From Planctomycetota bacterium (GTDB taxonomy: Bacteria; Planctomycetota; OFTM77), in assembly GCA_040219065.1 (NCBI GenBank), contig JAVJTD010000261.1, positions 657-64,656 of the forward strand: a stretch of 64,000 nt of DNA. Direction: 5' to 3'. This document shows, piece after piece, positions 14,041-64,000 of this stretch (positions within the stretch are counted from its first letter, which is position 1; the number at the start of each line of letters is the position of its first letter). The notes under the pieces were generated by a model. The model had not been told where the DNA came from. It did no database searches and saw only the letters and a program-made list of their open reading frames with translations. The translations under genes were made by a program, and so were the position numbers.

Positions 14041-14076
14041 CTGGGCACTGGCGCTCTCGGAATTCGGAGGTCTCGG

Positions 14077-38815: not shown

Positions 38816-39041
38816 TCCCCTCCCAGAGGCCAAGGCTCCGGACACCGCACGGGAGCTCGTCGCAACCCCAACCATGCGAGCTCGACGCTGCGGTCCGTCC
38901 GGTCGCCCCTCGCGCCTCAGTGGCCTCGCCCCGACGACTTATTCGCTTGGCGGCCTCATGGCCCTGTACTAGGCTGGCGCCCTCGTCGGCGACCGGGCTG
39001 CGGGCGCCGGTTTGCTCCTGACGACGGGCCAGGACGACTTC

Positions 39042-46096: not shown

Positions 46097-46666
46097 TCAA
46101 TCACCGAGTCGCTGGCGGAGCCAGGCGCGGGCCATGCTCCAGTCGTTGCGGACGGTGCGCTCGGAGACTTGCAGGGCGATTGCGATGGCCGGCTCGGTCA
46201 GGCCGCCGAAGAACTTCAGCTCGACGACTTTCGCCGCGCGCTCGTCCATCTCGGCGAGGTCCGTCAGTGCTTCATCGAGCGCCTCGAGGTCGAAGTCCTG
46301 GCTGGCTCCGGACAGCTCGCTCAACGTGACCCGCTCCCAACCGCCGCCGCGCTTGGCCGCTCGGCGACTCCGGAGATGATCGATCAGGATCTGCCGCATG
46401 ACCGTCGCGGCGACCGCCCGGAAGTGCGTCTGATCGTTGAAGTCGTCCACCGCGTGATCGACCAACTTCAAGAACGCCTCGTGCACCAAGGCCGTCGGCT
46501 GGATCGTCAACTCGCCGCCGCGTCCCATGTATCGCTGCGCCAGCTCGCGCAGCTCCTCGTAGAGCCGAGGCGTCAGACGGCGAGACGCGGACTCGTCACC
46601 GGCCTCGATCGCGGCCAGGATCTCACGGACGTCTTCGCTCAAAGGGCACCTCCGCCTCGGGGACAA
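46097..46666 (-). CDS. ECF-family RNA polymerase sigma factor (start uncertain; ORF open to 47212)
   Basis: Region 2 (RRLTPRLYEELRELAQRYMGRGGELTIQPTALVHEAFLKLVD) and region 4 (VVELKFFGGLTEPAIAIALQVSERTVRNDW); candidate TTG start at ~46666, upstream of LSEDVREIL. Confidence 0.75.
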   Translation of the reverse strand: MSPRRRCPLSEDVREILAAIEAGDESASRRLTPRLYEELRELAQRYMGRGGELTIQPTALVHEAFLKLVDHAVDDFNDQTHFRAVAATVMRQILIDHLRSRRAAKRGGGWERVTLSELSGASQDFDLEALDEALTDLAEMDERAAKVVELKFFGGLTEPAIAIALQVSERTVRNDWSMARAWLRQRLGD

Positions 46667-49531: not shown

Positions 49532-49798
49532 TCACCCGATCGCGACGCGGTGCAGGAGGTCGACGAGCTGACCGATGTTCTCGAGCTTGCCGAGCTCGGC
49601 GCGAGGCACCTTGACTCGCAGGTCGCGCATGCTGCACGAGACGATCTCGACAATGTCGAGGCTGGACGCACCGAGATCCTCGAGGGAGTCGGTCGGTTGG
49701 ACCTCGACGTCCTCGAGCTCGTCGATCGTGTCGATCAAGTGACCTCGGACGATGTCGAAGACCTGGCTGCGCGTGATCTCGTGAAGGCTCTGGCTCAT
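49532..49798 (-). CDS. acyl carrier protein
   Basis: 88 aa four-helix ACP with phosphopantetheine site LEDLGASSLDIVEIV (D-S-L). Confidence 0.85.
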   Translation of the reverse strand: MSQSLHEITRSQVFDIVRGHLIDTIDELEDVEVQPTDSLEDLGASSLDIVEIVSCSMRDLRVKVPRAELGKLENIGQLVDLLHRVAIG

Positions 49799-49936
49799 GA
49801 CTCGAGCTCCATCAGGGGAGTGACTTCAGATCGCCGATCGACCTGCTCGGGGAGTGAAACGGGAGGCGCCTCACGATCCGGCAATGGAGTCGTGAGTTTT
49901 CGTATCCCCCCACTTCAGGAGGTTGGCTCTCCGGCT

Positions 49937-50809
49937 TCAGCCGGATCGTTTCCCTTCGAAACGCGCGTTCCTCGTGGTCGCGGGCTCCACTCCGACGCTC
50001 TCGGTCTTCGCGAAGACCCGTTCCCGGTGCTGGAAGAGCCGGACGACGTTGTCGGAGAATTCGAGGCCGCGGTCGAGGGTGATGACTTGGCCGGTGATCG
50101 CGTCCATCTTGCCGCTGCAGAGGCCGACGATGGCGCTGGCGATCTCCTCGGCTTCCAGGAAGAACGCGTCGCTGTGGTACTGGCGACAGAAGGCGGCGAA
50201 GTCCTCGCCGAACGTCGCCTCGAGAGAGCGGGTCTCGCAGAACCAGGCGCGGAGGACGTTCACTCGGACGTCGTCTCCGAGAAGGTCGGCGGCGAGGTAG
50301 CGGCAGAAGGTCTCCATGACAGACTTGGAGGCGGCGACGACGTCGTAGCCTGGCAGGAAGTACTCGGGACCGGGTGACGAGAGCCCGATCGCGTAGCGTG
50401 GATAGGCACCGAAGTGCTCTTTGATCGCTTGCAGGTACGACGCGAACGGCCAGGCGCTGTACTCGAGCCCGCGGCGGAGGCCCTTGCGCGTCAGGTCGCT
50501 GGGCGTGTGACACACCGGCGCGAACGAGACGTTGCTGACGAAGACCTCGATGCGCTCGTGATAGCGTCGCACCGACTCGAAGAGCGCCCGCGTGTCCTCG
50601 TCTCGAGCGACATCGGCTTCGAGGATCGCGGGCGTTGGCGCCCCCTCCTCTTGAAAGCGCTCGGTAATCGCGTCCTCGTCGGCCGAGCCCCAGCGATGCG
50701 TCAGGATCGTGCTCGCACCGCGCCGCCCGAAGGCCAGCGCCGTCTCGAGACCGATGCCTTGCGTGCCGCCGGTGACCAGCACCGCCTTGCCCGTGAAGTC
50801 AACGCGCAT
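49937..50809 (-). CDS. enoyl-[ACP] reductase-like SDR (FabI/FabL-type Tyr-x6-Lys)
   Basis: AVLVTGGTQGIGLETA; active-site spacing Y-DVVAAS-K; paralogous to the next gene. Confidence 0.7.
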   Translation of the reverse strand: MRVDFTGKAVLVTGGTQGIGLETALAFGRRGASTILTHRWGSADEDAITERFQEEGAPTPAILEADVARDEDTRALFESVRRYHERIEVFVSNVSFAPVCHTPSDLTRKGLRRGLEYSAWPFASYLQAIKEHFGAYPRYAIGLSSPGPEYFLPGYDVVAASKSVMETFCRYLAADLLGDDVRVNVLRAWFCETRSLEATFGEDFAAFCRQYHSDAFFLEAEEIASAIVGLCSGKMDAITGQVITLDRGLEFSDNVVRLFQHRERVFAKTESVGVEPATTRNARFEGKRSG

Positions 50810-51602
50810 GGTCCACCTCCTCGAAGAGCCTCTGGCCGAGCGTCATCATGTTGTCGACGAAGCCCGAGCCGTGATCGACGGTGATCACCTGTCCGGACAA
50901 GGCGTCCCAGAGCCCGCTGCAGAGACTCGACGCGACATCGGCGACCTGCTCCGCCTCGACCGCGTACTCGGCGAAAGCCCGGGACACGGCCGCACCGTGC
51001 TCGCCGAACATCTCGCCGAAGCCGTCGGTCGTCACCTGCCGCGTCCGAATCACGTTCACGCGGCACCCGGCCTCCCTGAGATGAGTCGCCCAGTATTTCG
51101 CGAGCGTCTCGAGCACCGACTTGGCGAGCGCGACGTAGCCGTAGCCCGGGTAATGTCGATCGGCCCCGTCTGACGAGAGCGCCAGGGCATAACGCGGATA
51201 CCGGCCGAACACCGACGCGATCCCTTGCAGCGTGCCGATGAAGGGCCAAGCGCTGTAGTCGATGCTGCGCAGCAGGTCGCGGCGGCGATAGTCCATCGCG
51301 CCCTGCGAGCGCGGCACGACGCACACGTTGTGGACGAACACGTCGATCACTCCATACCGATCGCGAATGAGCTCGAGCAGCTCCCGTGTCTCGCCGTCGT
51401 CGCCGGCATCCGCCTGCACGATCATCAACATCTTTGCCCCGAGCTCTTCAAACCGTCCTCGGATCTCGTCCTCGTCGGCCGAGCTCCACCGATGCGTCAG
51501 GACCACCCGATCGCCCTCGCCCCCGAAGGCCTCGCCGATCGCCAGGCCCAGCCCTTTCGTCCCGCCGGTGACCAGCACGACGCGTCCAGGATTCTCACTC
51601 AT
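50799..51602 (-). CDS. enoyl-[ACP] reductase-like SDR (FabI/FabL-type), tandem paralogue
   Basis: VVLVTGGTKGLGLAIG; Y-GYVALA-K (Y-x6-K); colinear with the 49937..50809 protein. Confidence 0.7.
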   Translation of the reverse strand: MSENPGRVVLVTGGTKGLGLAIGEAFGGEGDRVVLTHRWSSADEDEIRGRFEELGAKMLMIVQADAGDDGETRELLELIRDRYGVIDVFVHNVCVVPRSQGAMDYRRRDLLRSIDYSAWPFIGTLQGIASVFGRYPRYALALSSDGADRHYPGYGYVALAKSVLETLAKYWATHLREAGCRVNVIRTRQVTTDGFGEMFGEHGAAVSRAFAEYAVEAEQVADVASSLCSGLWDALSGQVITVDHGSGFVDNMMTLGQRLFEEVDHAR

Positions 51603-52359
51603 GCCGATCCTCCATTCCGGGGAAGTAGCTGCCTTGAATCCTCTGCGCGGTCTCGGGCTTCTCGAAGCACACCGCGTGCATCAGCGCCTCGGACACGCGC
51701 GCGCGCTCGAACGCTACGCGACGCGGCGCCACGAGCGTCTGCTTCAATAGCCTGAGCGCGAAGCCCGGCTTCTCGGCGATGCGCCGCGCGATGCCGAGCG
51801 CGTGTGGCAACACGTCTTGTCCAGGCAACACCGCATTGACTCCACCTGACAGCTCGGAGCCGCGAACGAATCGCCCGCTCATCATCATCTCGGTGGCGAG
51901 GTACTCGCCGCACGCCACCTGCAGGAGACCGGTCGTGCCCATCCCCGGCGTGAACCCGAGATCCATGAAGTTGCAGCCGTAGCGTTTCTCCTTCGCCAGG
52001 ATCACCATGTCGCAGCACAGGCCGAAGACCAGCCCGCCACCGACGGCATGCCCGCTCATCGCGGCGATCGTCGGGACCGGGACATCCAACAACGTGCGGG
52101 TGAGCGTCAAGTCGTAGGGCGAGCGCCGACCTTCGGCGAGGTCGAGCAGGACTTCCTGGTCGCCGCCCGCCGAGAAGACATCGTCACTGCCCGTCACGAC
52201 ACAGCACTTCACCGCGGGATCGGAGAGCGCTTCCAGTCGCGCGACCAGCTCCGAGACGAAGCTCTCGCCGAAGGCGTTCTTCCCGGCTGGGTCTTGCATG
52301 CGTAGCAAGGCGACACCGTCACGATCGATCTCGAGCGTGATGCACGGCTCGCTCATCAC
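51595..52359 (-). CDS. enoyl-CoA hydratase/isomerase (crotonase) family, ECH2-like (decarboxylase of beta-branching cassettes)
   Basis: Crotonase fold motifs KCCVVTGSDDVFSAGGDQ and AAMSGHAVGGGLVFGLCCDMVI; position after ECH1/HMGS matches PksI/MupK-type. Confidence 0.75.
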   Translation of the reverse strand: MMSEPCITLEIDRDGVALLRMQDPAGKNAFGESFVSELVARLEALSDPAVKCCVVTGSDDVFSAGGDQEVLLDLAEGRRSPYDLTLTRTLLDVPVPTIAAMSGHAVGGGLVFGLCCDMVILAKEKRYGCNFMDLGFTPGMGTTGLLQVACGEYLATEMMMSGRFVRGSELSGGVNAVLPGQDVLPHALGIARRIAEKPGFALRLLKQTLVAPRRVAFERARVSEALMHAVCFEKPETAQRIQGSYFPGMEDRHE

Positions 52360-53126
52360 ACCGCCTCCGACTCGATGGTCCAGGGCGAGCGGCCTTCGAG
52401 GAACGCCGCGATGGACCGGCGCACGCTCGGATCCCGAAGTCGCTCCGCCGTCAACGATGCCCCCGCCGACAGTGCCTCTTCGAGTGACCGGGACGTCAGT
52501 CCGCTCAGGAGCCGAGCGATTCGGCGACTCGCTGCCGGGTCGACGCGGACGAGCTGCCGCTCCAAGCGCTTCAGCTCCCGCTCCAGCTCATCATGCGTCG
52601 TGACGACATCGACGAGCCCGATCTCCCGTGCGCGATGCGCCGAGCAAGGCAACGCCGAGGCCGCGAGCCAGCGCGCCTTCTGAGAGGCCATCCGCCCGAG
52701 GAGCATCGGCAGCACCATCGCCGGCACCAGCCCGAGGACCGCTTCGGGCAACGTGAAGGTCGCTCGCTCGGTCGCGATCACATGATCTGCCGCGGCCACG
52801 AGCCCCACACCCCCAGCAGCCACCTCGCCGTCGACGACCGCGATCACCACGGCCTTCAAATGATGCAGGCGAGCCAGCACCCTCGCGAACTGCTCCAGGC
52901 AAGGTTGGAGCTCGCCATCCGCCATCGAGAGGACTCGGCCGAGGTCCATGCCCCGGCAGAACGGATCGCTGCCGGACAACACCAGCACGCGGCAGTTCGC
53001 GTCCTTCTCCAGCTCGCCCAGAATTCGCTCCAGGCGATCGAGCGAATCGGGGTCGAGCGTCGCCTCACCGCCTAGCCGGATCTCGCGGACGTCTTCGGAG
53101 AGGAGCTCATGGTCGATCGTCATCAT
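52356..53126 (-). CDS. enoyl-CoA hydratase/isomerase family, ECH1-like (dehydratase of beta-branching cassettes)
   Basis: Crotonase motifs RVLVLSGSDPFCRGMDL and AVVDGEVAAGGVGLVAAADHVIA; 4-nt overlaps with both neighbours. Confidence 0.75.
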   Translation of the reverse strand: MMTIDHELLSEDVREIRLGGEATLDPDSLDRLERILGELEKDANCRVLVLSGSDPFCRGMDLGRVLSMADGELQPCLEQFARVLARLHHLKAVVIAVVDGEVAAGGVGLVAAADHVIATERATFTLPEAVLGLVPAMVLPMLLGRMASQKARWLAASALPCSAHRAREIGLVDVVTTHDELERELKRLERQLVRVDPAASRRIARLLSGLTSRSLEEALSAGASLTAERLRDPSVRRSIAAFLEGRSPWTIESEAV

Positions 53127-53138
53127 GGTCGGACTCCT

Positions 53139-54356
53139 TCAGCTCAATCCGTACTGACGCTCGAACCCCGAGACGCCCTCGAGAACGAGTCGGCCTCGCC
53201 CCGCATAAAGGCGCTCGTACAGGTCACCGTGCTCGCCCCGCGCCACGAGGTAGTCGGGCTGCTCGGCCCGCTCCGTCCTGGTGCGCTCGATGCGCTCATA
53301 CTCGGAGACGCTCACGGGCCGTCGCTCCTCGAGCAGCTCTTCCAGCCGGGCAGCGGCGACGATCTCCTTGGCTCTTGCTCCGATGCGCCCTTCGTAGATC
53401 TCGGCGCACGAGCCCGATCCGTACGAGAAGATGCTGACGCGGTCGCCCGGGGAGAGCTCGGGATCGCTATCGATCAAGCCGAGCAGCCCGAAGAAGGTCG
53501 AGCTCGAGTAGGTGCCACCGAGGAGCGCGTTGTAGGTGAGGCTCGGCCGCACCTTCCGCTCGAAGTGGGCCCGCGCCTCGGCCGCGTCCACTCGCCGTGC
53601 ACGCCGCAGCAGCGCTCGGTGAGCTCGCCAGGCCATGCCGCCGAAGGGCATGTGGTAGATGTGCCGCTGGAAATAGTCGTCGAGATCGTTGTCGCCGGCG
53701 CGCGTGAGGAAATGATCATAGGCGCCTTCGAGGCCGTCGAGGTAGCAGAACAGGCTGTCGTCGGCATGTCCTACCTCGCTCGTGGCGGTCGGGCGATAGG
53801 TATCGGCGACCTCGCTCGTCCAGTACCCGCAGTGCGAGAGCTCCAGCTCGAGGACATCGGGCCGATCCCCGACGATCATCGCGACGGCGCCCGCCCCCAT
53901 CACCATCTCCCAGGGCTTGCCGAAGTGGGCGCGGCTCTGGTCGGTGGTGACGACGAGCGCCTTCGCTCCGGGCCGAATGCCACTCGCCACCCAGTGCGCG
54001 GCGAGCATCAAGGCGGAGGTGCCGCTGTAACAAGCGTGCTTCGTCTCGAGCGTCCGGCAGTTGGGCTGGATGCCGCCGTAGCGGTGCACATACGCGGCGA
54101 TCGGCTTGCCGAAGTCCGGCGAGGACTCGGTGCCGACGACGAGGAGCTCGATGCGCTCCCGGTCCTCATCGGTGAGGACCGAGAGCGCGGCATTGACGGC
54201 CATCGTCACCGGATCTTCGAAGAGCGGATTGAGTGACCGCGTCTTCACCATGAGCTCGTCGAGCGATGCCGGGTCCTGGCCACGGGCAATCGCGAGCTCT
54301 GCGAGGTCCAAGGAGAGCGTGCACGGGTAGGCCGAGATCTTCTGGATTCCGATCAT
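53139..54356 (-). CDS. hydroxymethylglutaryl-CoA synthase homologue (HMGS; PksG/MupH-like)
   Basis: 405 aa from MIGIQKISAYP (RBS GGAG upstream); catalytic Cys in RTLETKHACYSGTSAL, His in HIYHMPFGG, C-terminal SYGSGS; the listed 710-aa ORF is this gene plus an out-of-frame overlap of the KR gene. Confidence 0.85.
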   Translation of the reverse strand: MIGIQKISAYPCTLSLDLAELAIARGQDPASLDELMVKTRSLNPLFEDPVTMAVNAALSVLTDEDRERIELLVVGTESSPDFGKPIAAYVHRYGGIQPNCRTLETKHACYSGTSALMLAAHWVASGIRPGAKALVVTTDQSRAHFGKPWEMVMGAGAVAMIVGDRPDVLELELSHCGYWTSEVADTYRPTATSEVGHADDSLFCYLDGLEGAYDHFLTRAGDNDLDDYFQRHIYHMPFGGMAWRAHRALLRRARRVDAAEARAHFERKVRPSLTYNALLGGTYSSSTFFGLLGLIDSDPELSPGDRVSIFSYGSGSCAEIYEGRIGARAKEIVAAARLEELLEERRPVSVSEYERIERTRTERAEQPDYLVARGEHGDLYERLYAGRGRLVLEGVSGFERQYGLS

Positions 54357-54379
54357 CTTCCGGCTCCGATCGAACGAGC

Positions 54380-55168
54380 TCACTTCGTCCAGTCCAGTCC
54401 GCCGGTGACGGGGATCACCTGCCCATTGATGAAGCTGGCGGCATCGCTCGCGAGGAAGAGGACGACGCGCGCCAGCTCTTCGGCTTCGCCCATGCGTCCA
54501 CCCGGCATGGGGCAGAGGTCTCGCCAGTAGTCCCGCATGCGCTCCGGCATCGTCTCGCGCGTCATGTCGGTCTCGAAGAAGCCCGGCCGCACGACGTTGG
54601 CGCGGATTCCCTTCGGTCCGTACTCCTTCGCGAGGCTTCGCGTGAGCCCTTCGAGCCCGGCCTTGCTCGCCGCGTAGTTGGCCTGACCCGAGCCGCCGCC
54701 GGCTTGGATCGAGGAGACGTTGATGATGCGGCCACAGCGGCCCGCGAGCATCGAGGGCAAGAAGTGCCGGCAGACGCGGAAGGGGCCCGAGAGGTTCGTC
54801 GCGATCACCGTGTCCCATTCCTGGTCCGACATCGAGATCGCGAGGTTGTCGCGGTTCACGCCCGCGCAGTTCACGACGACCTCCACCGGCTCGAAGTCGA
54901 GCTGCACCGCCTCGAGCGCCGGCTCGATCGCCTGGGCATCGGAGACATTCAACTCGTAGGCGCGGCAGTGAGCTTCTGGACGCATCGCTCGGGCGGCCTC
55001 GATCACGCCACCGGCAGCAGCGCGATTCGATTTGAAGGTAAAGGCAACATCGTGACCGGCTCGGATCGCCTCCAGCACGATCGCCGCGCCCAGCCCGCGC
55101 GAGCCTCCTGTGACCAGCCAGTTCACCTCGCGTCTCCTTCTTCGAAGCGCCGATACAGCGCGCAGCAA
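54380..55168 (-). CDS. fabG: 3-oxoacyl-[ACP] reductase (FabG-like KR); probable true start at a GTG near 55126 preceded by AAGGAGA
   Basis: WLVTGGSRGLGAAI, NAG motif VVNCAGVN, catalytic S..YAASKAGLEG (YxxxK). Confidence 0.88.
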   Translation of the reverse strand: MLRAVSALRRRRREVNWLVTGGSRGLGAAIVLEAIRAGHDVAFTFKSNRAAAGGVIEAARAMRPEAHCRAYELNVSDAQAIEPALEAVQLDFEPVEVVVNCAGVNRDNLAISMSDQEWDTVIATNLSGPFRVCRHFLPSMLAGRCGRIINVSSIQAGGGSGQANYAASKAGLEGLTRSLAKEYGPKGIRANVVRPGFFETDMTRETMPERMRDYWRDLCPMPGGRMGEAEELARVVLFLASDAASFINGQVIPVTGGLDWTK

Positions 55169-56427
55169 TTGATCCCGCCGAAGCCGAAGGAGTTCTTGAG
55201 CAGGACGTCGGCGCGGTGCTCGACGGGTCCTTCGGCGCAGACATCGAGCGCGACCTCGTCATCGAGCTCATCGATGTTGATCGAGGGATGCAGGACGCCG
55301 CCTTGCATCTGCAGCAGCGCGGCCACCGTCTCGACGACGGGCGCCGACCAGCAGGTGTGACCGAGCATCGACTTCGGCGCGTTGACCTTCAGCCGATCGG
55401 CATGACTACCGAACGCCGCGCGCAGCGCTCGCATCTCGGACAGGTCGCCCTGCGGCGTCGAGGTCGCGTGCGCACACACGAAGTCGACATCCTCGGGGCG
55501 CGTACCCGTGCGTTGCAGCAGCCGCTCGATCGTCCGAGTCTGCCCTTCGGGAGACGGCGCGGGCAGGTGACAGCCGTCGGCGGTCGCTGTACATCCGAGC
55601 ACCTCGGCGTAGATGCGTGCGCCCCGCCCGAGCGCATGCCCCAGCTCCTCGAGCACCAGCACGCCCGCTCCGTGCGATGGCACGAAGCCCTCTCGCCGCT
55701 TGTCCCACGGCCGGCTGGCCGCTTCGGGACAATCGTTGAAGCTCTCGATGCTGATCGCGCCCATCAACGCCATCGCCTGCACATCGAGCGCTGAGAACTC
55801 GAGCACCGGACCGACGACCATGACGAGGTCTTGGTCATGATGACGAATCTCGTCGAGGCCGGTGCGCAAGGCGAGGTTGGCGCTCGCGCAGGCACCACCG
55901 AGCGTGAATGCCGATCCCTTCCAGCCGAGCACCTCGCTGACGGAGCCGGCGTGATCGGTGTCGAGCATCAGCAGCGCCGCGGCCGCGTCGATGTAATCGG
56001 GCTCGCCGCGAAACGTCTCGTAGTTGCCGATGAGGTAGTTCTGGTTCAGGTTGTGCCCGCCGACGAGCACGCTGCTCCGGGTCGGGTCTTCCTGGCCGGT
56101 CAGTCCGGCGTCCCTCCAGCCCTCGGCGGCGACGAGCATCGAGATCTCGGTCGAGAACGGAGCCTTCTTACTGAGCTGACGGAGCCGACGATGCATCGCG
56201 TCGGGCAGCCGCTCCCGCAGCGCCTCACGCCGCGCCACGCCATCGACGTGACCGGCGAGGTCGCCGCCGATCTTCGAGTAAACACCCTCCGTCTCCAGGC
56301 TGCGCCACTGCCGGATCGCCGAGCGCCCGGCGAGGAGGTTCGCGTAGAAGGTCTCGAGGTCACCGCCGAGCGGCGTCTGTATCGCCATCCCCGTTACGAC
56401 CACTCGCCGTTGATTCGCCGCGATCAT
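55123..56427 (-). CDS. beta-ketoacyl-[ACP] synthase (FabF/FabB-like KS, Cys-His-His triad intact)
   Basis: Starts MIAANQRRVVVTGMAIQTPLG within ORF 55123..56508; active-site Cys LGGACASAN, His CAHATSTPQGD, His KSMLGHTCWSA. Confidence 0.88.
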   Translation of the reverse strand: MIAANQRRVVVTGMAIQTPLGGDLETFYANLLAGRSAIRQWRSLETEGVYSKIGGDLAGHVDGVARREALRERLPDAMHRRLRQLSKKAPFSTEISMLVAAEGWRDAGLTGQEDPTRSSVLVGGHNLNQNYLIGNYETFRGEPDYIDAAAALLMLDTDHAGSVSEVLGWKGSAFTLGGACASANLALRTGLDEIRHHDQDLVMVVGPVLEFSALDVQAMALMGAISIESFNDCPEAASRPWDKRREGFVPSHGAGVLVLEELGHALGRGARIYAEVLGCTATADGCHLPAPSPEGQTRTIERLLQRTGTRPEDVDFVCAHATSTPQGDLSEMRALRAAFGSHADRLKVNAPKSMLGHTCWSAPVVETVAALLQMQGGVLHPSINIDELDDEVALDVCAEGPVEHRADVLLKNSFGFGGINCCALYRRFEEGDAR

Positions 56428-56509
56428 GACGTGCTCCTTCGTGAGGCTCCGAGCGACTCGACAGTCGCTGTCGCCGAGGGAAACGAAGGAGGCATGCCGA
56501 TCCGGCAAT

Positions 56510-57335
56510 CAAGTCAGCAAGATCGTTGCGGCGAACCGGCGGAGCATACAGTGCTGAAACTGGGCCCGAGGGCAATGGAGTGCCCAAGCCGAGCGAGCCC
56601 GTGACCGAGTCTCTTGGTGAGGGCTTTCCCAAGCGAGCTTGGTCCGGGGCGGCCGTGCGACGACAGCGCACTCCGAGCGGCCCCTTGCTCCGCGCCTCCC
56701 AATTCGATCGGTGGCACCGTCGAGGAAGCAGCTCCCCGCTCAGCAGCCGCTCCCCGGTTCGGTCGCGCGGGCTCTGTTTTCGGTCGCGCGGGATCTAGTT
56801 TCAAGTCAGCAGCGCCCCCGCGGTGGACCGCCGGAGCATACAGGGGGTGAAGCTCGAGTGCGTTGGAGTGCCCAAGCCGAGCGAGCCCGTGACCGGGTCT
56901 GTCGGTGAGGGCGCTGCGCAAGCGAGCTTGGGCCTCTTCGAACGTCCAACGGCTCGACTTCCAACTCTCAACTTTGAAGCTGGCGATCCGATCGCACGCG
57001 GCGGCATCGGGCCACGGAGCTTCGGACCTGAGGTTTGGGGCTTCTTCAAGGCGCTGGGATGAGGGCACCGAGACCGGCTGAAGCCGGCGGTCCGAATGCG
57101 GCATGTTTCAAGTCAGCAGCGCCCCCAGCGCGGCGCCGGAGCATGCAGGTGGTGAAACGTGCTCGGTGCATTGGAGTGCCCAAGTCGAGCGAGCCGGGGA
57201 CCGGGTCTCTTGGTGAGGGCCTTCCCAAGCGAGCTTGGGCCGGGGCCGACCGCTGCAACCCCAAGCCTGTGAGGCTTGCCCTCGTCTGGGTCGTGCCGCT
57301 GCGCGGACCGATGCGGGCAGGATCCCGCGCTCCTC
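56510..57335. repeat. mosaic repeat locus 3: ~2.7 tandem copies of a ~300-bp unit inserted between the fabZ-like and KS genes of the biosynthetic operon
   Basis: Unit starts ccggagcat(a/g)cag..gtgaa..ggagtgcccaagccgagcgagcc..gaccg.gtct.t.ggtgagggc..cccaagcgagcttgggcc, recurring at ~56535, ~56834 and ~57141; also contains ggccacggagcttcggacctgaggtttgggg and gagaccggctgaagccggcggtccgaatgcgg, shared with loci 1 and 2. Confidence 0.85.
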
Positions 57336-57851
57336 TCAGTCGTCCAGCCAAACCACCTGACAAGCTGCGGCGGTGCAGATCTTGCCGTCGACGATTGCCT
57401 GGCCGATGCAGGTACCGATCCAGCCGTCGTCTTCGGTCATCTTCACGACCAACCGGACATCGTCGCCGGGCCGGACCTCTTCGAGGAACTGGGCGCCTTC
57501 GATCCTGGCGAGCCGAAGAGAGCGCGGTGCGTCGCCGGGCAGGAGCTCGGTCCGCTCCGCGCGGATGAAGTGAGCGAGGGCGAGTCCGGCCTGACCGATC
57601 ATCTCGAGGAGGAGCACGCCCGGGTAGACGGGATCGGACGGGAAGTGCCCGTCGAAGACCGGGTCCGCCACATCGATGTGCCGCCGTGCCTCGAGCGCCC
57701 GCTACGCGAGGTCGATCTGCGCCACGCCGTCGAGCAACAAGAAGGGCGCACGGTGCGGGAGGATCTGCTCCAGCCCCATGCGATCGATGTCGACCGCGGT
57801 GCCTCGTTCCTCCATGAGCGTGCTTCGGGTCGGCAGTCTCACGCGCTTCAT
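57336..57851 (-). pseudogene. FabZ/FabA-like hotdog dehydratase interrupted by an in-frame TAG (~codon 50)
   Basis: Listed ORF 57336..57671 begins mid-domain at (V)ADPVFDGHFPSDPVYPGVLLLE, the FabZ catalytic-His motif region. The 177 nt upstream reads in the same frame MKRVRLPTRSTLMEERGTAVDIDRMGLEQILPHRAPFLLLDGVAQIDLA-TAG-RALEARRHIDV, i.e. the FabZ N-terminus (ILPHRxPFLLxD). Its ATG overlaps (ATGA) the stop of the upstream AT gene. Confidence 0.7.
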
Positions 57852-58798
57852 GACGCCACCGAACGCGGCGAGGTCGCCGCTCTCAGGCGTGGAATCAACT
57901 CACGGAGATGCTGCGCCGTTTCGTCTTTGCTGTCGCAGGCGTGCTTGTCGACGCGGCACCACTTGCGATCCATCAGGCTAGTCAGCACCGACTTCGCCCC
58001 GACCTCGACGAACACCGCATCCGGCCAGCGCTCGCGAACGTGATCGATCGACGCTCGCCACTGAACGGGCGAATGCACGTGCTCGGTCAGTAGCCGCTGC
58101 ATCTGCTCGGGGGACGGGCAGAGACACTCGCGTCCCAGCACGTTGGAGAAGTACGGTCGATGCGGCCGCTGCCAGCGCACGCGATGCAGGTGCTCCGCCA
58201 ACTCGTCGGCGACCGGGCGGAACATCGAGCTGTGCATAGGGCACCGCTTCTCGATGACGACTGGCTGCGCAAAGTGCTCGTCCTCGGCGCTGCGGACAGC
58301 ATCAGCGACGGCTTCGGCATGGCCTGCGATGACCTGCTGGCGCGGCGAGTTGAGGTTCGCGATCTCGAGGCAGCGGTCTCCGCGGACGCGCTCGATCAGC
58401 GCTTGCACCTCGCCCTCTTCCATTGGCTGAACGGCGGCCATCCAGCCGCGTGGTCCGCGATCGTACGCACGCCCGCGAGCCTGCACCGTCAGGAGCGCCT
58501 CACGAAAGCTCAGAGCGCCGATGTGCACGAGATGGTTGAGCTCGCCGAGGCTCGCGCCGAGGGAGAGATCCGCTCGTACACCGCGAGCTTCGAGGAGGCT
58601 CTGGAACATCAGGTTGGCGAGGAACACCGCGATCTGGATGTCCTCGTTGCGCTCGAATCGTCGCTCATCGAGCTCGCGGCCGAGCAGCCGCTGCGCCTCG
58701 GCGAGAACACCCAGGTTCGGGGCGTGCAGCTCGGTCAGCTTGGTCAGCATCCCGGGATACCGCGAGCTCTGACCGGGGAAGAGGTAGACGAGAGTCAT
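57848..58798 (-). CDS. malonyl-CoA:ACP transacylase-like acyltransferase (FabD family)
   Basis: FPGQSSRYPGM, active-site GASLGE (GxSxG), ...HS... motif; 316 aa. Confidence 0.82.
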   Translation of the reverse strand: MTLVYLFPGQSSRYPGMLTKLTELHAPNLGVLAEAQRLLGRELDERRFERNEDIQIAVFLANLMFQSLLEARGVRADLSLGASLGELNHLVHIGALSFREALLTVQARGRAYDRGPRGWMAAVQPMEEGEVQALIERVRGDRCLEIANLNSPRQQVIAGHAEAVADAVRSAEDEHFAQPVVIEKRCPMHSSMFRPVADELAEHLHRVRWQRPHRPYFSNVLGRECLCPSPEQMQRLLTEHVHSPVQWRASIDHVRERWPDAVFVEVGAKSVLTSLMDRKWCRVDKHACDSKDETAQHLRELIPRLRAATSPRSVAS

Positions 58799-58813
58799 GG
58801 CGACCTCCCCGGG

Positions 58814-60043
58814 TCAAAGAAGGGTATCGGTGAGGATATCGAGCGCGCAGTCGAGCTCGTCCGGAGTGTGGGCCGCGGTGATGGCGACGCGGTAGCGCAG
58901 CGCGTCCTCGGGCACGGACGGGTAGTCGATCGGGGCGAGGAACAGGCCGCGGCGGGTCATCTCGGCGCATCGCTCGTAGAGGCGATCGCGGTCGGAGCCC
59001 ATCATGATCGGGATCACCGGGCTCTCCGATTCGCCGCAGTCCAAGCCTGCCTCCTGCGCGCGCGCCCGGAAGTAATGAGTATTCCTCCATAACGTCTCTC
59101 GCCTGGAACCGTCGCGCGTGGCGATGTCGAGCGCGGCCATCACACCGGCCACGACCGAAGGCGGCAAGGCGCAGGAGAAGCCGTAGGGCCTCGAGTACAG
59201 CCGGAGGTACTGCAGCGTCTCGCGGTCCCCGGCCGTGAATCCGCCGATGCCTGCCAGCGCCTTGCTGAACGTCCCGAACTGGAGAGCGATCCGCCCCTGC
59301 ATTCCAAAATGCTCGACGACGCCCCCGCCGGTCTCGCCGAACATCAGGTACGAGTGCGCCTCGTCGATGAAGATCGGGACGTCGTGCGCCTCGGCCACCG
59401 GGACCAATGATGGGAGATCGGCGAGGTCGCCGTCCATCGAGTACACGCCTTCGAGCACGACGAGACGACGGCGTCCGGCAGCCGCATCGAGGGCACGCTC
59501 GAGCGAGACGGGATCGTTGTGGTCGAAGAAGACGAGCTTGGCGCCCGAGACTCGCGCGCCATCGATCAGGCAGAGGTGGCAGCGCGCATCGAGGATCGCC
59601 ACATCCCCCTTGCGAAGCAAGCCGGCGAGGCTGCCCATGCCGCCCGCGTAGCCGCTGTTGAAGAGCAGGCAGGACTCGCGGCCGAGGTGCTCGGCCAAGC
59701 GCTCCTCGAGGAGGGCGTGGAGGTCGGATGTGCCGGAGAGGATCGGCGAGCCGCAAGCGCCAGTGCCGTACTCCTGGAGCGCAAGGGCAGCGGCTCGGAG
59801 CACGTCGGGGTGGCGGTTGAGCCCGAGGTAGTTGTACGAGGCGAGGTTGATCACCGATCGACGCGCTCCGGCGCGCTCGATGTCGACCCGCGGAAGAGCG
59901 GCTCCGTGGAGCCGAGGCTCCATCAAGGAGAGGGGCTCCTGGCACCGCGCGAGCCAGGCCGTGAACTCGGGAGGCGCTTGGGCCGGATCGGAGGTGTCGG
60001 GGAACGCGAAATCGGCCAGGCTGTACTCGATGGACGTGCTCAT
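58814..60043 (-). CDS. PLP-dependent alpha-oxoamine synthase family enzyme (SPT/CqsA/BioF/KBL-like acyl-thioester:amino-acid C-acyltransferase)
   Basis: Starts MSTSIEY within ORF 58814..60115; SYNYLGL, GTGACGSPILSGT, PLP-lysine motif GTFSKALAGIGGF. Confidence 0.85.
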   Translation of the reverse strand: MSTSIEYSLADFAFPDTSDPAQAPPEFTAWLARCQEPLSLMEPRLHGAALPRVDIERAGARRSVINLASYNYLGLNRHPDVLRAAALALQEYGTGACGSPILSGTSDLHALLEERLAEHLGRESCLLFNSGYAGGMGSLAGLLRKGDVAILDARCHLCLIDGARVSGAKLVFFDHNDPVSLERALDAAAGRRRLVVLEGVYSMDGDLADLPSLVPVAEAHDVPIFIDEAHSYLMFGETGGGVVEHFGMQGRIALQFGTFSKALAGIGGFTAGDRETLQYLRLYSRPYGFSCALPPSVVAGVMAALDIATRDGSRRETLWRNTHYFRARAQEAGLDCGESESPVIPIMMGSDRDRLYERCAEMTRRGLFLAPIDYPSVPEDALRYRVAITAAHTPDELDCALDILTDTLL

Positions 60044-60146
60044 GAGTGAGTCCTCGTTCTCGTGATCGATTCGGTCGTCACCGAGCGAAACGAGAACGAA
60101 GATCGGATCCGGCAAGAAGGAGCGCCGGATTCGTGGCGCGTCAGCA

Positions 60147-61400
60147 TCAGCCGGACTGGCTTGATGCGCCGTGTCTTTGTGTTGATCCCTGCGAGCGGGA
60201 CGGCCGCGCTCCAGATCGCACAGCGGATGGCTCGCCCGTCAGGTGGAAGGTCTCTCGCCGATTCCGGCAGGGGTTGCCGCGGCAGACGTCGATCGTGCGA
60301 GTCGTGGGATCCAAGATCGCGTTGAACAGAGTCTCGCTGAGGGGGTCATCGTGGCGGCAGACCGTCAGGCTGTTGCCTGAGCTACCGTCGTGATCGCTGG
60401 AGATATTGACGATGTCCCTGTCTCCATACTTGTCTCGGGTCAACAGCCTCGGAAGCCGCGCGCTCCTCGAGACATTGCAGGCGTGGATGTCGACGCCGCT
60501 GATGACGCCGCGACTGAGCGAGCCGACGGGGACTTCGACCGCCGGCATCTCCTTCGAGAAGTACTGGTTGACCGACCAGAGGACCTCATTGCGCTCCGGT
60601 CGTCGGACAGATTTGCGTGTGGCGGAGATCTCGATCGCGGCGCGATCGCCCGATGCATCGACGAAGGTGAGGATGCCGCCACTCAGCGTCTCGGTGCGCA
60701 ACACGGTGTCGACCGCCTCTTGGGTGGATCGAGCACGCTCGAGGCACTCTTGGAGCAACATCGTCAGGAATCGACCCGGCTTCCGGCGGCGGATGTCGGC
60801 AGCGAAGGCATGGTTGAGCGAGACGGCGAGCCCGGCTTCATTGACGCCGGCGACGGCACCGAGGAGGACGGGGTACGTCAAGGCGAGCGAGCGAAGGCCA
60901 TGCGTGGGATCCGACCGCCGGATCATCGCGAACGGGCGGAAGGCGGGCGGAAAGTCGTGGTTGTAGGCCAGCTTCGGGCGCCCGGACTCGGTCTGGGACC
61001 CAGCGAAGCCGAGGGAGCTGCACCCTGGCGTGAAGCCGAAGTGGGAGCTCTCGAGCTCGATGGCATTGAGTCCGTAGACCTGGCTCTTGCTGAGACCCAA
61101 TCCCGCCGCGAGGCCATCCAGGGCCTCGCGCCAGAACGGATCGAGCGCGTCTCGGTGCCAATGCCGATAGCAGCGGCCGAGCACGCTCGAGATCCCTCGA
61201 AGGACCAGTCGGCCCAATCCGCGTGGCAGCCTTTCGGGCACGAAGGGAAGCTGTAGCAGGGCGTCGAGCGCCGCCCCCAGCTCGCCGCGACCCGACCGCC
61301 CTTGAGCTCCATACCGCTCGCTGGGGCTCCCTTCTGCCAGGACGACGCTCCAACCCGGCGCTCGTTGCAGTGACTTCATTTCAACATACCTTCCTTTCAA
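60147..61400 (-). CDS. peptidase C45 / acyl-CoA:6-aminopenicillanic-acid acyltransferase (AAT)-family Ntn-hydrolase-fold protein
   Basis: 417 aa; GCSSLGF nucleophile-region motif and AYNHDFP segment typical of the AAT/C45 family; low-complexity R/S/G-rich C-terminal ~90 aa. Confidence 0.6.
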   Translation of the reverse strand: MKGRYVEMKSLQRAPGWSVVLAEGSPSERYGAQGRSGRGELGAALDALLQLPFVPERLPRGLGRLVLRGISSVLGRCYRHWHRDALDPFWREALDGLAAGLGLSKSQVYGLNAIELESSHFGFTPGCSSLGFAGSQTESGRPKLAYNHDFPPAFRPFAMIRRSDPTHGLRSLALTYPVLLGAVAGVNEAGLAVSLNHAFAADIRRRKPGRFLTMLLQECLERARSTQEAVDTVLRTETLSGGILTFVDASGDRAAIEISATRKSVRRPERNEVLWSVNQYFSKEMPAVEVPVGSLSRGVISGVDIHACNVSRSARLPRLLTRDKYGDRDIVNISSDHDGSSGNSLTVCRHDDPLSETLFNAILDPTTRTIDVCRGNPCRNRRETFHLTGEPSAVRSGARPSRSQGSTQRHGASSQSG

Positions 61401-63508
61401 CCGATGGTGCGATACGTCTCCGGCCGTCCGGCGATGACGTTGGCCGCGCGGATTCCCGACTCACAGGCCCCTTCGACCAGTGCGATGCAGAAGCGCGTCC
61501 GCGTGTGGTCCCCCGCCAGGATCAGCCCCCAGCGCTCGTAGAGATCACCCGCGCCCAGCCGGGTCGCGGTCGATCCCGCCGGCACACGGTTGTAGCGGTC
61601 CGAGCTGCTGGGCAGGTCGGGAAGGTACTGATCGCGAATCCGGTCGCGACCGGAGGCGCCCTTCTCCGCGTGCACGACCTCGTCCCACAGGAACCGACCC
61701 TCTCGGTACGCCTTCGGCCAAAAGTGGGCCATGTGATCCTCGAGATACCCGGCGAGGTGGCTTTGCTCGTCGAGGCGCTCGTCGTCGAAGAAGCTCGCCG
61801 GGATGTCGGCTCGCTCGCCCCAGAAGTACGCCACGCTCGACGGTGCGTCGTCGCCATGATCCTCGGCTGCGAGCGTCTGACTCATGTCGGTGTAGCCGGC
61901 GATCGGATCGAGATACGTTCCGCAGAGGATCGGGCCCGGCTCGCGCCCGAGGCCAGGCTGATCGTGCGCGCTCCAGCCGAGCTCCTGCGCCGAGCGCTTC
62001 AGCCAGACCTGTCCGCCCGCCGGCTCGACGGCGTTCTGGGCTCCCCGGCGAACGAAGGCATCGTAGGCTGCGTCCTTCGCCATGAGCTCGGAGGCGATCT
62101 CGGCGTGGGCACCGATGGCGATGGCGTTGAGGATCACGTCGAAGTCGCGGCCGCGCTGGATCGTCGCGTCGGTCTGGCCCGGGATGTCTCGAAAGCTCTC
62201 CAGCCCGGCCTCGGGAGGGAGCTGCCGCAGATCCTGCCCGTCGACGCGCGTGACGATCTGATCCCAAAGCGGCTCACTCGGCCAACAGTCGATCGGCCTT
62301 TCGAGTCGACCTTGCACGGGAATCAAAGGGTCGTATCCGCGGTCCTCATCCGCCAACCTGCACTGACGCACCATCTCGACGGCTTCGATCCCTTCACCGT
62401 TCTCAGCCAAGCGCAGGTTCGTCACTCGGTGGAAGAACCGGAACCGGACACCGCGATCCCTGAGCATTTGATAAACAGGCGCGACGACGACATCGCCCAT
62501 GCCGGCGTTCATCAGGTACTGCGGGCAGCCGGTCCAGGTGAACATCAACCGGCTGACGGTGTAGAGCGCCGCCCCGGCTGCCAAGGTCGAGGTGTTGTGG
62601 GCGATCGTCTTGTAGAGGTTCTTCAAGAGCGGAGAGCGCTCGGCCGACACCTCGGTCAGGCCGTAGCGGCGGAGCCAGTCGATGAAGTCCTCGCCGTCCA
62701 ATTCGCGGTAGCCGGCGGCATCCGGCTTTCGCAGTCGCCAGAAGCTCGCGATGCGGCCCCGCAGGAGCGCACACATCAGGTCGATGTTGTAGAAGGCCCG
62801 ACGCAGGCGGGGTGAGCTCTTCGGTGTCCTCACTCGGTGATGATAGAGCGCATTGAGCTTCGCGATGACGACGAGCACCGGTGCGACGACGAGGAGGCAG
62901 AAGACGAAGGTCGCCCCAGCCGAGCACGAGCTGATGAGAGCGCCCGGCAGGAGAGCTCGTCCGTGCGCCGACACCCGGCGGCGGAGCCGGGGTCGGTCTC
63001 GGGTCCCCGGGCGCGGTCCGCGCAGCTTCCCCCAGAAGGCGCGCACGAAGGACGCCGCGAAGAAGTCCGCGCGAGCTCGCCGCTCTTCTCCGGGGTAGAG
63101 CGCGTTCGTCCAGAAGCGGTTCGGCCAGTGCACCCATTCGGGATCGTGACCGGGGAAGTGCTCTTGGAGCTGCCAGCTCGGCATCTGGCGAATCGCGCTC
63201 TTCAAGCCGCCCAGCGGTGCGCCCGACCCCAGCCCGCGCTCGCCGACGTATTCGTAGGCATCCCAGAGTAGCCGAAAAGTCATCCCGTAGAAGCCGAGCA
63301 GAATGTGGAGTCCGTGCTCTTCGATGCGCTGCCCGCGGGCGGCATTGCGACCCGAGCGGGCCTTGCCACCCAGCCTCCAGCCGAGCTGATACACGGTGAT
63401 ATCGTAGCGGTCCTGCCAACCCGGCTCGCGCGTCAGCTCGTGCACCGCCGACAACGCCGCGACGCCACCGCCGAGCACCGCGATCCTCTTGGGTCTTTCT
63501 CGAGTCAT
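61397..63508 (-). CDS. large FAD/NAD(P)-binding oxidoreductase (amine-oxidase / CrtI-like desaturase superfamily) with a central hydrophobic segment
   Basis: Starts MTRERPKRIAVLGGGVAALSAVHEL (dinucleotide-binding fold) within ORF 61397..63991; ~703 aa; TM-like LLVVAPVLVVIAKL; ATGA overlap with the downstream C45 gene. Confidence 0.7.
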   Translation of the reverse strand: MTRERPKRIAVLGGGVAALSAVHELTREPGWQDRYDITVYQLGWRLGGKARSGRNAARGQRIEEHGLHILLGFYGMTFRLLWDAYEYVGERGLGSGAPLGGLKSAIRQMPSWQLQEHFPGHDPEWVHWPNRFWTNALYPGEERRARADFFAASFVRAFWGKLRGPRPGTRDRPRLRRRVSAHGRALLPGALISSCSAGATFVFCLLVVAPVLVVIAKLNALYHHRVRTPKSSPRLRRAFYNIDLMCALLRGRIASFWRLRKPDAAGYRELDGEDFIDWLRRYGLTEVSAERSPLLKNLYKTIAHNTSTLAAGAALYTVSRLMFTWTGCPQYLMNAGMGDVVVAPVYQMLRDRGVRFRFFHRVTNLRLAENGEGIEAVEMVRQCRLADEDRGYDPLIPVQGRLERPIDCWPSEPLWDQIVTRVDGQDLRQLPPEAGLESFRDIPGQTDATIQRGRDFDVILNAIAIGAHAEIASELMAKDAAYDAFVRRGAQNAVEPAGGQVWLKRSAQELGWSAHDQPGLGREPGPILCGTYLDPIAGYTDMSQTLAAEDHGDDAPSSVAYFWGERADIPASFFDDERLDEQSHLAGYLEDHMAHFWPKAYREGRFLWDEVVHAEKGASGRDRIRDQYLPDLPSSSDRYNRVPAGSTATRLGAGDLYERWGLILAGDHTRTRFCIALVEGACESGIRAANVIAGRPETYRTIG

Positions 63509-63533
63509 CGCCGCCTCCAAGCAAGGGGTTCCA

Positions 63534-63553
63534 GCCGTGCGCTCGAGCGCACG
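63534..63553. promoter_or_regulatory. perfect 20-bp palindrome ccgtgcgctcgagcgcacgg in the divergent promoter region of the biosynthetic cluster
   Basis: Located ~30 nt upstream of the FAD-oxidoreductase start; followed at ~63680 by a direct repeat TCACGAA-TCACGAA. Confidence 0.35.
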
Positions 63554-63778
63554 GGTCGAAGGCGAAAACGGAAGTCGGTGCCGGATCCGGCAATGAGCCG
63601 ATCGAGTTACGAAGGACGAGATCTTGATGACGAGGCGTGGAGAGCCGGCGTCGGGTGATTGCGGGGTGAGCCGCGATTCACGAATCACGAAGATTGCCGG
63701 ATCGCGAGCTCCCTGCCGTTTCAACCTCCGACTCTTTGAGCTGTCGCTTTCCGAACCGGCCGACCGCAGGAGCCAACG

Positions 63779-64000
63779 ATGACCAGGATCGATACGACTG
63801 CGAGCCCACGGATGCTCGATGTCCCGACCCAGCTCCGCTACTCCGAGGACTACGCTCTGGAGAACAGGCGCTTGGTGCGTCTCTACGAACACGCCAAGCG
63901 CGATCAATGGAATGCGACACAGCGTCTCGACTGGTCGATCGAGGTCGATCCCGGGCGCGGCGTCTTTTCCGACGAGCTCATCGGCATCCACGGCAGCGCG
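63779..64000 (+). CDS. 5' fragment of a CDS running off the window; weak resemblance to ferritin-like di-iron oxygenases (AurF-like)
   Basis: ATG at ~63779 preceded by GGAG; reads MTRIDTTASPRMLDVPTQLRYSEDYALENRRLVRLYEHAKRDQWNATQRLDWSIEVDP..., open to the window end; high GC3. Confidence 0.35.
   Translation, partial: MTRIDTTASPRMLDVPTQLRYSEDYALENRRLVRLYEHAKRDQWNATQRLDWSIEVDPGRGVFSDELIGIHGSA

Follow-up and report, generated by a model that had tools for sequence, protein, structure and literature searches.

What does a complete set of β-branching enzymes do beside stand-alone fatty-acid-type enzymes and a putative chain-releasing enzyme? The question is raised by a gene cluster in a 64,000-nucleotide (nt) stretch of a Planctomycetota metagenome-assembled genome (MAG; GCA_040219065.1, contig JAVJTD010000261.1), hereafter referred to as the window. 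The cluster encodes an acyl carrier protein (ACP), a ketosynthase (KS), a ketoreductase (KR), a dehydratase (DH), an acyltransferase (AT) and two enoyl-ACP reductase (ER) paralogues of the short-chain dehydrogenase/reductase type (SDRa and SDRb), together with a 3-hydroxy-3-methylglutaryl (HMG) synthase homologue (HMGS), two crotonase-fold enzymes (ECH1 and ECH2) of the type found in HMG synthase cassettes (HCSs), and an α-oxoamine synthase (AOS). Here we report the gene content of the cluster, the family assignments and catalytic residues of its products, and the conservation and boundaries of an 11-gene unit, from AOS to ACP, that is tightly kept across several phyla. We propose, with a rough probability of 55%, that this unit encodes a dedicated type II synthase producing a methyl-branched acyl-ACP, which the AOS would release as a long-chain α-amino ketone for lineage-specific tailoring, with no modular polyketide synthase (PKS) being needed.

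The cluster consists of 13 co-directional minus-strand genes at positions 49532–63508 of the window, in the order ACP, SDRb, SDRa, ECH2, ECH1, HMGS, KR, KS, DH, AT, AOS, C45 and flavoprotein from position 49532 (Table 1). Domains were assigned from Pfam and NCBIfam model scores, which upheld all the domain assignments of the original prediction, made from the DNA letters alone. That prediction had counted 14 genes and extended the cluster to 64000; we count 13, with no gene in the DH–KS stretch (56428–57335), and place the operon start at 63508, the segment 63779–64000 belonging to a divergent plus-strand gene. Most gene junctions are tight, with overlaps of 4–11 nt or gaps of 12–23 nt, and the wider ones lie before AOS (103 nt), before ACP (138 nt) and between DH and KS (908 nt). 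The GC content of the window is 62–69%, and the cluster shows no compositional break.

HMGS-based searches of genome and metagenome collections yielded 84 related loci, at 44–73% identity, on which the window proteins were placed by tblastn. The complete AOS–AT–DH–KS–KR–HMGS–ECH1–ECH2–ER–ER–ACP set is present in 14 of the 84 loci, mostly in the window order and permuted in some. KR precedes HMGS in 46 of the 50 loci with room upstream, and ECH1 follows it in 44 of the 48 with room downstream. In the four loci checked, the core block is 9.6–9.9 kb long, which equals the sum of its 11 genes and therefore leaves no space for FabH, a chain-length factor (CLF), a thioesterase or a PKS. Consistently, no FabH-type initiating KS III occurs in the 11-gene block, and neither the window nor the flanks of at least 20 inspected loci contain a modular PKS gene, in agreement with the earlier view that the cluster is not a modular PKS. 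The loci range from 31% to 74% GC, and their named sources are Planctomycetota, Vicinamibacterales and Candidatus Xenobia/'bacterium CPR1'. Many unrelated contigs show this block again with an identical gene order, a grouping far beyond chance. The original prediction had made its case depend on co-occurrence in related genomes, and the genes do stay together in dozens of loci that represent several phyla.

Comparison of the sequences indicates that HMGS and both ECHs resemble ACP-dependent β-branching enzymes more than MvaS and LiuC. Among solved structures, HMGS matches CurD at 273 bits, 8s81 at 242 and PksG at 240, as against 180–198 bits for MvaS-type structures (198 for the 5hwo-type HMG-CoA synthase and approximately 180 for the Enterococcus and Staphylococcus MvaS proteins). 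On the prokaryotic HMG-CoA synthase model TIGR01835 it reaches 254 bits, under the cut-off of 360, and four members of its clade share residues E77, C109 and H235 without exception. ECH2 passes the PksI-type model NF005496 (264 bits; cut-off 215), and its best solved relatives are PksI (162 bits) and CurF (133 bits), followed by generic hydratases at 97 bits or less. For ECH1 the margin is small: the three solved structures nearest to it are 4nnq (113 bits), VirD (8ahq; 82 bits) and PksH (78 bits), with generic hydratases at 76 bits or less, and its top NCBIfam match, NF005498, scores 126 bits, under the cut-off of 250. In the virginiamycin cassette, VirD (8AHQ) acts as the ECH1 (PMC10006238). 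Thus, of the two outcomes initially envisaged, PksG-, PksH- and PksI-like enzymes or MvaS and LiuC, these scores favour the former for HMGS and ECH2, and for ECH1 by a small margin.

The AOS is, by its match scores, an unclassified member of the α-oxoamine synthase group, and it is the only enzyme of the conserved unit predicted to be able to release the chain. The FSK lysine motif is conserved. However, the protein falls under every curated equivalog cut-off, scoring 323 bits on the BioF model (cut-off 426), 311 on KBL (460), 224 on 5-aminolevulinate synthase (ALAS; 339), 182 on the CqsA-type model (428), and 311, 293 and 230 on three serine palmitoyltransferase (SPT) models (640, 500 and 670, respectively). 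The AOS is therefore not a plain BioF or KBL, which the original prediction had named as a possible outcome. Eight orthologues from related loci likewise fall under all curated cut-offs, so that the match scores assign no amino acid substrate to the enzyme. Its best solved relatives are the SPT of S. multivorum (Sphingobacterium; 262 bits), ThAOS (Thermus BioF/KBL; 252 bits) and KBL (229 bits), and CqsA structures are not among the Protein Data Bank (PDB) matches at E ≤ 1e-30. Eight sister loci (L059, L060, L071, L072, L076, L082, L089 and L091) hold a divergent second type of AOS that shares only 33–38% identity with that of the window and follows the ACP gene instead of heading the block; the release enzyme may thus have been swapped or have strongly diverged.

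The discrete AT, KS, KR, DH, ER and ACP together make up the component set of a type II synthase. The KS scores 349 bits on PRK07103, 'polyketide beta-ketoacyl:ACP synthase' (cut-off 445), versus 295 bits on fabF, both under cut-off, and its GACAS, HATST, GHT and FGFGG motifs, including the active-site Cys and both His residues, are conserved in 37–43 orthologues. The enzyme had been described as a FabF-like KS with an intact Cys-His-His triad; the triad is confirmed, whereas the closest type is the KS of PksF cassettes, not FabF. Cassette KSs are condensation-incompetent KS0 proteins (PMC11522927), and the cluster KS is not of this kind, as every orthologue examined retains the condensing Cys. 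The KR, whose start was picked from the ribosome-binding site and the Logan gene call, scores 223.5 bits on the FabG-subfamily model NF009466, over the cut-off of 222, and 246 bits on TIGR01830. SDRa and SDRb are 46% identical, and the Y-x6-K motif by which the two had been recognized as FabI-type enoyl reductases is conserved in both. The top NCBIfam match of SDRa is FabL (98 bits, under cut-off), and its closest matches of solved structure are FabI or FabL proteins without exception; the five top NCBIfam matches of SDRb include FabL and FabI models, all under cut-off. The Ser-Leu-Asp phosphopantetheine motif of the ACP is kept in 25 orthologues.

From these components we infer every chemical step of the proposed pathway, and likewise which amino acid is used, how long the chain is and where it branches. 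The AT would transfer malonate to the cluster's own ACP. Because no FabH is present, a PksF-like KS would supply acetyl-ACP by decarboxylation; the single KS would thus convert malonyl-ACP to acetyl-ACP, to prime the chain and to provide HMGS with its donor, and would also carry out elongation, with KR, DH and one ER performing ordinary reductive cycles. At one β-ketoacyl-ACP stage, HMGS would add acetyl-ACP. The simplest such stage would be acetoacetyl-ACP, leading to an isovaleryl group and an iso-branched chain start. CurD acts on acetoacetyl-ACP (PMC11522927), and HMGS may use it as well because it is nearest to CurD, in which case the iso-branched chain would have an ACP-bound, leucine-independent start. 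ECH1 would dehydrate the adduct and ECH2 would decarboxylate it to a β-methyl enoyl-ACP, which the second ER paralogue would reduce; the two paralogues would be explained if one reduces 2-enoyl-ACPs and the other the 3-methyl-2-enoyl-ACP from ECH2. Finally, the AOS would condense the branched acyl-ACP with an amino acid, expelling CO2, to yield a long-chain α-amino ketone, that is, a 3-keto-sphingoid-like base. Proteobacterial Spt acting with AcpR provides a precedent for an AOS that uses a dedicated acyl-ACP (PMC11324152). In the window MAG and a sister MAG, C45 would N-acylate or de-acylate the amine, the flavoprotein would desaturate or oxidize, and a diiron enzyme would oxygenate or desaturate the product. 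In other lineages, GNAT-like, SDR, PAP2, Omp85 and major facilitator superfamily (MFS) genes would take the place of these three. The pattern suggests a membrane lipid, and the acyltransferase-like, reductase, PAP2, Omp85 and MFS genes that accompany the core in sister loci would suit an amino lipid of the sphingolipid type. The proposal is also supported by two predicted folds, that of C45 being related to acid ceramidase and N-acylethanolamine acid amidase (NAAA), and that of the flavoprotein having a lipid-chain desaturase as its nearest match.

The flavoprotein, C45 and diiron genes are confined, among the 84 mapped loci, to the window and the sister locus L003 (GCA_964649825.1). The FAD oxidoreductase and C45 proteins had been taken as parts of the cluster; their families hold, and they are lineage-specific additions rather than members of the conserved unit. 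That unit is more compact than the original prediction assumed, with 11 genes, and more widely distributed. L003 contains a flavoprotein 62% identical to that of the window, and its gene order is flavoprotein, C45, GNAT-like (on the opposite strand), an extra SDR, AOS, AT, an intact DH, diiron, KS, KR and HMGS, at which the examined stretch ends. In C45, a member of the N-terminal nucleophile (Ntn) cysteine enzymes, the Gly-Cys processing site comprises an invariant Cys120 and a nearly invariant Gly119 (23 sequences). A sequence search against the PDB gave zero matches. The AlphaFold2 (AF2) model (predicted local distance difference test (pLDDT) score 89) best matches the fold of isopenicillin-N acyltransferase (IAT; template modelling (TM) score 0.77–0.81), then those of NAAA and acid ceramidase. 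As Ntn cysteine enzymes of this type make or break acyl amides, N-acylation or de-acylation of an amino lipid is a natural guess for its role. The neighbourhoods of C45 homologues are varied and offered no functional clue. In one of them, on a Myxococcales MAG (L097, 1456–12736), the homologue adjoins a TetR gene and an aryl-polyene-like set comprising a KS, Ketoacyl-synt_2, ApeP-like, a halogenase-like flavoprotein, a KR, an acyltransferase-ACP and an AMP-binding/ApeI-like protein.

The AF2 model of the flavoprotein (pLDDT 86) confirms a two-domain FAD-binding fold, which best matches rice phytoene desaturase (5mog; TMt 0.76), then protoporphyrinogen oxidase (PPOX), NicA2 and monoamine oxidase (MAO). 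The N terminus matches HpnE, and a helical insert is probably membrane-associated. On this model, chain desaturation and amine oxidation are both possible activities. Among 5.8 billion proteins we found two close homologues only, with 62% and 48% identity. The latter is encoded after genes for a PlsC-type acyltransferase and an AMP-binding, fatty-acyl-AMP-ligase-like protein (L004, 6009–10781). The family as a whole is large, bears the JGI name 'NAD-binding domain and iron-sulfur cluster' and includes many fusions to the acetoacetate-decarboxylase-like domain PF06314. The diiron protein is 316 residues long in the Logan contig and has a Pfam AurF domain (69 bits). Its best solved sequence relative is aldehyde-deformylating oxygenase, and no chain labelled AurF or CmlI is among its solved-sequence matches at E ≤ 1; since it is not close to any solved AurF or CmlI chain, the name N-oxygenase is not applied to it here.

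The accessory genes next to the core differ in other loci, where they comprise a GNAT-like gene of approximately 370–420 codons (seven loci), an extended-SDR, epimerase-like gene (five), a PAP2 gene (three), a phosphopantetheinyl transferase (PPTase) gene (at least four, including L091) and a classical SDR gene beside AOS. In L091 (31% GC), MFS, PPTase, Omp85-like, GNAT-like and PAP2 genes lie ahead of the core. The GNAT-like and epimerase-like genes flank some sister loci, and none is found in the window. The epimerase-like protein has HpnA, OleD and SdmB as its top models, all under cut-off; its sequence is compatible with an NDUFA9-like CerR (PMC11087976), an identity that is unproven. The GNAT-like protein has no NCBIfam match. 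Its family, of approximately 370 residues, shares 55–62% identity across Myxococcota and Alphaproteobacteria MAGs, is represented in L003 at 13287–14405 and lies directly downstream of glmS in three genomes (L093, L094 and L095, 10001–11128).

Table 1. Genes and other features of the cluster and its flanks, with positions in the window.
Feature	Position	Strand	Description	Basis or remark
ECF sigma factor	46097..46642	-	Extracytoplasmic function (ECF) sigma factor, planctomycete-type	PF07638; paired with Ser/Thr kinase
Ser/Thr kinase	46709..49510	+	Ser/Thr protein kinase with tetratricopeptide repeats (TPR)	Pkinase, TPR; convergent on ACP gene
ACP	49532..49798	-	Acyl carrier protein, 88 aa, sole ACP of cluster	PF00550 28 bits
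SDRb	49937..50809	-	FabI/FabL-like enoyl-ACP reductase paralogue, 290 aa	adh_short_C2 120 bits
SDRa	50799..51602	-	FabI/FabL-like enoyl-ACP reductase paralogue, 267 aa	FabL model, PDB relatives
ECH2	51595..52356	-	PksI/CurF-type crotonase-fold decarboxylase, 253 aa	NF005496, PDB relatives
ECH1	52356..53126	-	HCS-type crotonase-fold dehydratase, 256 aa	ECH_1 114 bits, PDB relatives
HMGS	53139..54356	-	HMG synthase homologue of ACP-dependent (HCS) type, 405 aa	PDB sequence relatives, TIGR01835
KR	54380..55126	-	FabG-like 3-ketoacyl-ACP reductase, 248 aa	NF009466, TIGR01830
KS	55123..56427	-	Ketosynthase, 434 aa	PRK07103, intact Cys-His-His
REP-like repeat	56509..57260		Three copies of a dispersed repeat, no gene	Fills DH–KS spacer
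DH	57336..57851	-	FabA/FabZ-like dehydratase, 171 aa	PF07977 72 bits with stop masked
AT	57848..58798	-	FabD-like acyltransferase, 316 aa	PF00698 78 bits; kept in core block
AOS	58814..60043	-	Pyridoxal phosphate (PLP)-dependent α-oxoamine synthase, 409 aa	Aminotran_1_2 165 bits
C45	60147..61379	-	C45 (IAT-family) Ntn cysteine acyltransferase/hydrolase, 410 aa	NF040521 127 bits, cut-off 85
Flavoprotein	61397..63508	-	Phytoene-desaturase/amine-oxidase fold, 703 aa	NAD_binding_8, Amino_oxidase
Diiron	63779..64000	+	Ferritin-like diiron oxygenase (Pfam AurF), 5′ end, cut by window end	Divergent

The 908-bp spacer between DH and KS (56428–57335) contains only copies of the REP-like repeat, which has a conserved hairpin core of approximately 70 nt (GGAGTGCCCAAGCCGAGCGAGCC...CCCAAGCGAGCTTGGGCC). 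Further copies lie at 45636–46092 and, in the opposite orientation, at 19497–19878, in intergenic clusters of about three. The repeat has no Rfam match and zero copies in the related loci. In other loci DH abuts KS, and in the sister locus L003 the diiron gene lies between them. A scan for sigma-70 promoters and terminators found nothing above chance. Beyond the kinase and ECF sigma factor pair on the ACP side, the genes are housekeeping genes, and another FabG/FabI-type SDR (39012–39803; adh_short_C2 222 bits) is encoded 10 kb from the cluster, adjacent to an ATP-binding cassette (ABC) transporter operon. Ser/Thr kinase genes also flank the core block in five loci besides the window, including L005/L034, L018 and L076/L077 (for example, L005 985–4461 and L076 3019–4698), from Vicinamibacterales and from other metagenomic sources. 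This weak association hints at shared regulation and marks the kinase as a possible regulator.

Several observations weigh against the proposed amino-lipid pathway. Characterized HMGSs tell the donor ACP from the acceptor ACP (PMC11522927), and the single ACP of the cluster would have to serve as both; its sequence, read by eye, lacks the aromatic 'flag' residue, a concept described in PMC10006238. The AOS falls short of every SPT cut-off, and no sequence feature settles how long the chain is, where it branches or which amino acid is used. The window's own cluster has no accessory SDR, GNAT-like or PAP2 gene. That the GNAT-like protein is a bacterial ceramide synthase is unproven, its relatives in the three genomes named above lying beside glmS and not spt. 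The repeat-filled spacer may split the operon into two transcription units. Finally, the DH frame in the window assembly has an in-frame TAG at 57702–57704. At the site of position 57704, the Logan contig L092, from an independent assembly of the same run (SRR26147846), reads CAG (Gln), the sole mismatch across 2486 nt. Gene calling on L092 gives an intact 171-residue FabA-domain protein, and DH orthologues have Q or A at this position. We therefore take the stop to be a population variant or an assembly or consensus error, and not a fixed pseudogene or a sign that the cluster is inactive.

AOS enzymes of the CqsA type make signals, and a short-chain diffusible signal is an alternative product, albeit an unlikely one. 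In this case, 3-methylcrotonyl- or isovaleryl-ACP derived from HMG-ACP, perhaps after one or two extensions, would be released as a small amino ketone that serves as a CAI-1/LAI-1-like autoinducer or dimerizes to a pyrazine, and the adjacent kinase and ECF sigma factor would sense the amino ketone. A kinase gene adjoins the core in the window and in three or more further, independent types of locus, which would agree with this, as would the affinity of HMGS to CurD, which acts on acetoacetyl-ACP (PMC11522927). However, the cassette is strictly conserved together with KR, DH and two ERs, for which a C5 product would have no use, the AOSs of the window and its orthologues score 170–203 bits on the autoinducer-synthase model, under the cut-off of 428, and the PAP2, Omp85, GNAT-like and MFS accessory genes point to a membrane lipid. 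The joint conservation of two complete β-processing sets and two ER paralogues would also allow rounds of KR, DH and ER to alternate with rounds of HMGS, ECH1, ECH2 and ER, building an isoprenoid-mimicking, phytanyl-like acyl-ACP and, via the AOS, a polymethyl sphingoid base. The flavoprotein would fit such a chain, as its fold is nearest to phytoene desaturase and its N terminus matches HpnE, which both act on methyl-branched isoprenoid chains. We nevertheless consider this rather improbable: the flavoprotein is absent from most loci, the sequences bear no sign of programmed alternation, and a single branching event accounts for the gene set more simply. A still bolder version, in which the 11-gene unit is a polyketide-logic route to polymethyl-branched chains without the mevalonate or methylerythritol phosphate (MEP) pathway, yielding a new class of branched sphingoid bases that the Planctomycetota flavoenzyme desaturates, appears to us distinctly improbable.

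The AT, ACP, KS, HMGS, ECH1 and ECH2 include all six components of an ordinary trans-acting HCS cassette, and the KS scores best on a PksF-type model, so that the genes could in principle serve a modular trans-AT PKS encoded elsewhere, with the remaining genes being unrelated. This is most improbable given that no PKS gene occurs in the flanks of at least 20 inspected loci, that KR, DH, both ERs and AOS form an inseparable whole with the cassette, and that every KS orthologue has the condensing Cys, unlike KS0 (PMC11522927). Equally hard to credit is a primary-metabolic module, in which MvaS/LiuC-type enzymes of leucine, isovaleryl-CoA or mevalonate metabolism stand beside a BioF or KBL. Although there are matches of HMGS to the prokaryotic HMG-CoA synthase model (254 bits) and of AOS to the BioF and KBL models, all these scores are under cut-off, and HMGS and ECH2 are closer to CurD/PksG and PksI, respectively. 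Furthermore, neither bioA, bioB or bioD, nor an HMG-CoA reductase gene, nor liu or aib genes were found near the cluster in the window or in a flank survey of 23 related loci, and ACP, AT and KS are integral to the block.

If the amino-lipid pathway is correct, HCS β-branching would be a built-in step of a fatty-acid-type lipid synthase, beyond its part in PKS tailoring, and the cluster would represent a new, widespread amino-lipid pathway in abundant, poorly cultured Acidobacteriota (Vicinamibacterales), Planctomycetota and Eremiobacterota-type Xenobia. The pathway could account for environmental lipids or biomarkers that are still unassigned, or for signals. Branched-lipid engineering would profit from the uncharacterized AOS clade and from an ACP-dependent HMGS set that makes do with one free ACP, and the 11-gene unit, of approximately 9.5 kb, is small enough for the hypothesis to be tested directly. 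The original prediction did not recognize the gene combination as a described pathway, and likewise we found no description of an HMGS/HCS cassette with an AOS or SPT and type II enzymes in the searchable full-text literature, a scope that leaves out subscription-only papers. A Black Sea study reported Spt-like proteins in 138 Planctomycetota MAGs (PMC11334938); because the word 'polyketide' is absent from its main text, it appears not to describe such a synthase.

The cluster has features in common with several known systems and differs from each of them. Similar to the HCS cassettes of trans-AT and some cis-AT PKSs (AcpK/PksF/G/H/I, CurB–F and VirC/D/E), it has an AT to load malonate, a free ACP, a stand-alone KS, HMGS, ECH1 and ECH2. 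Unlike these cassettes, it comes without a modular PKS or tandem flagged acceptor ACPs, its KS retains the condensing Cys, and the cassette is fused with a discrete KR, DH and two ERs, the chain being predicted to end by the action of an AOS. The cluster thus departs from that family, as described, in two defining features, a KS0 and an acceptor within a modular PKS. With CqsA and LqsA it shares a stand-alone AOS, predicted to form an amino ketone from an acyl thioester, and an adjacent sensor kinase gene, whereas its AOS scores 182 bits against the family cut-off of 428; we know of no dedicated synthase in CqsA/LqsA systems. In the alternative isovaleryl-CoA route of myxobacteria (MvaS, LiuC and AibA/B), HMG-type chemistry yields a leucine-independent, iso-branched starter. 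That route uses CoA thioesters and an MvaS-type synthase, whereas the HMGS described here is nearer to the ACP-dependent type, its ECH2 is of the PksI type, and an ACP and an AT are part of the block. HCS β-alkylation with discrete type II enzymes is found in the fogacin type II PKS (Sato et al. 2019, cited in PMC11522927). The fogacin system uses KS–CLF pairs to make aromatic polyketides and is not known to have an AOS, whereas the present cluster has one KS and no CLF and would use full reduction and AOS release. The Spt–AcpR–AasR–CerR–CerS system of Caulobacter and other Proteobacteria likewise encodes an AOS beside its own ACP (PMC11324152), and some of the sister loci similarly add an N-acyltransferase-like gene, a reductase gene and a PAP2 head-group-type gene. 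In contrast to that system, the AOS of the cluster is under every SPT cut-off, and the accessory genes are not identified with CerS or CerR; moreover, whereas the Spt–AcpR system relies on an acyl-ACP synthetase acting on a ready-made fatty acid, the cluster brings its own de novo synthase and branching cassette.

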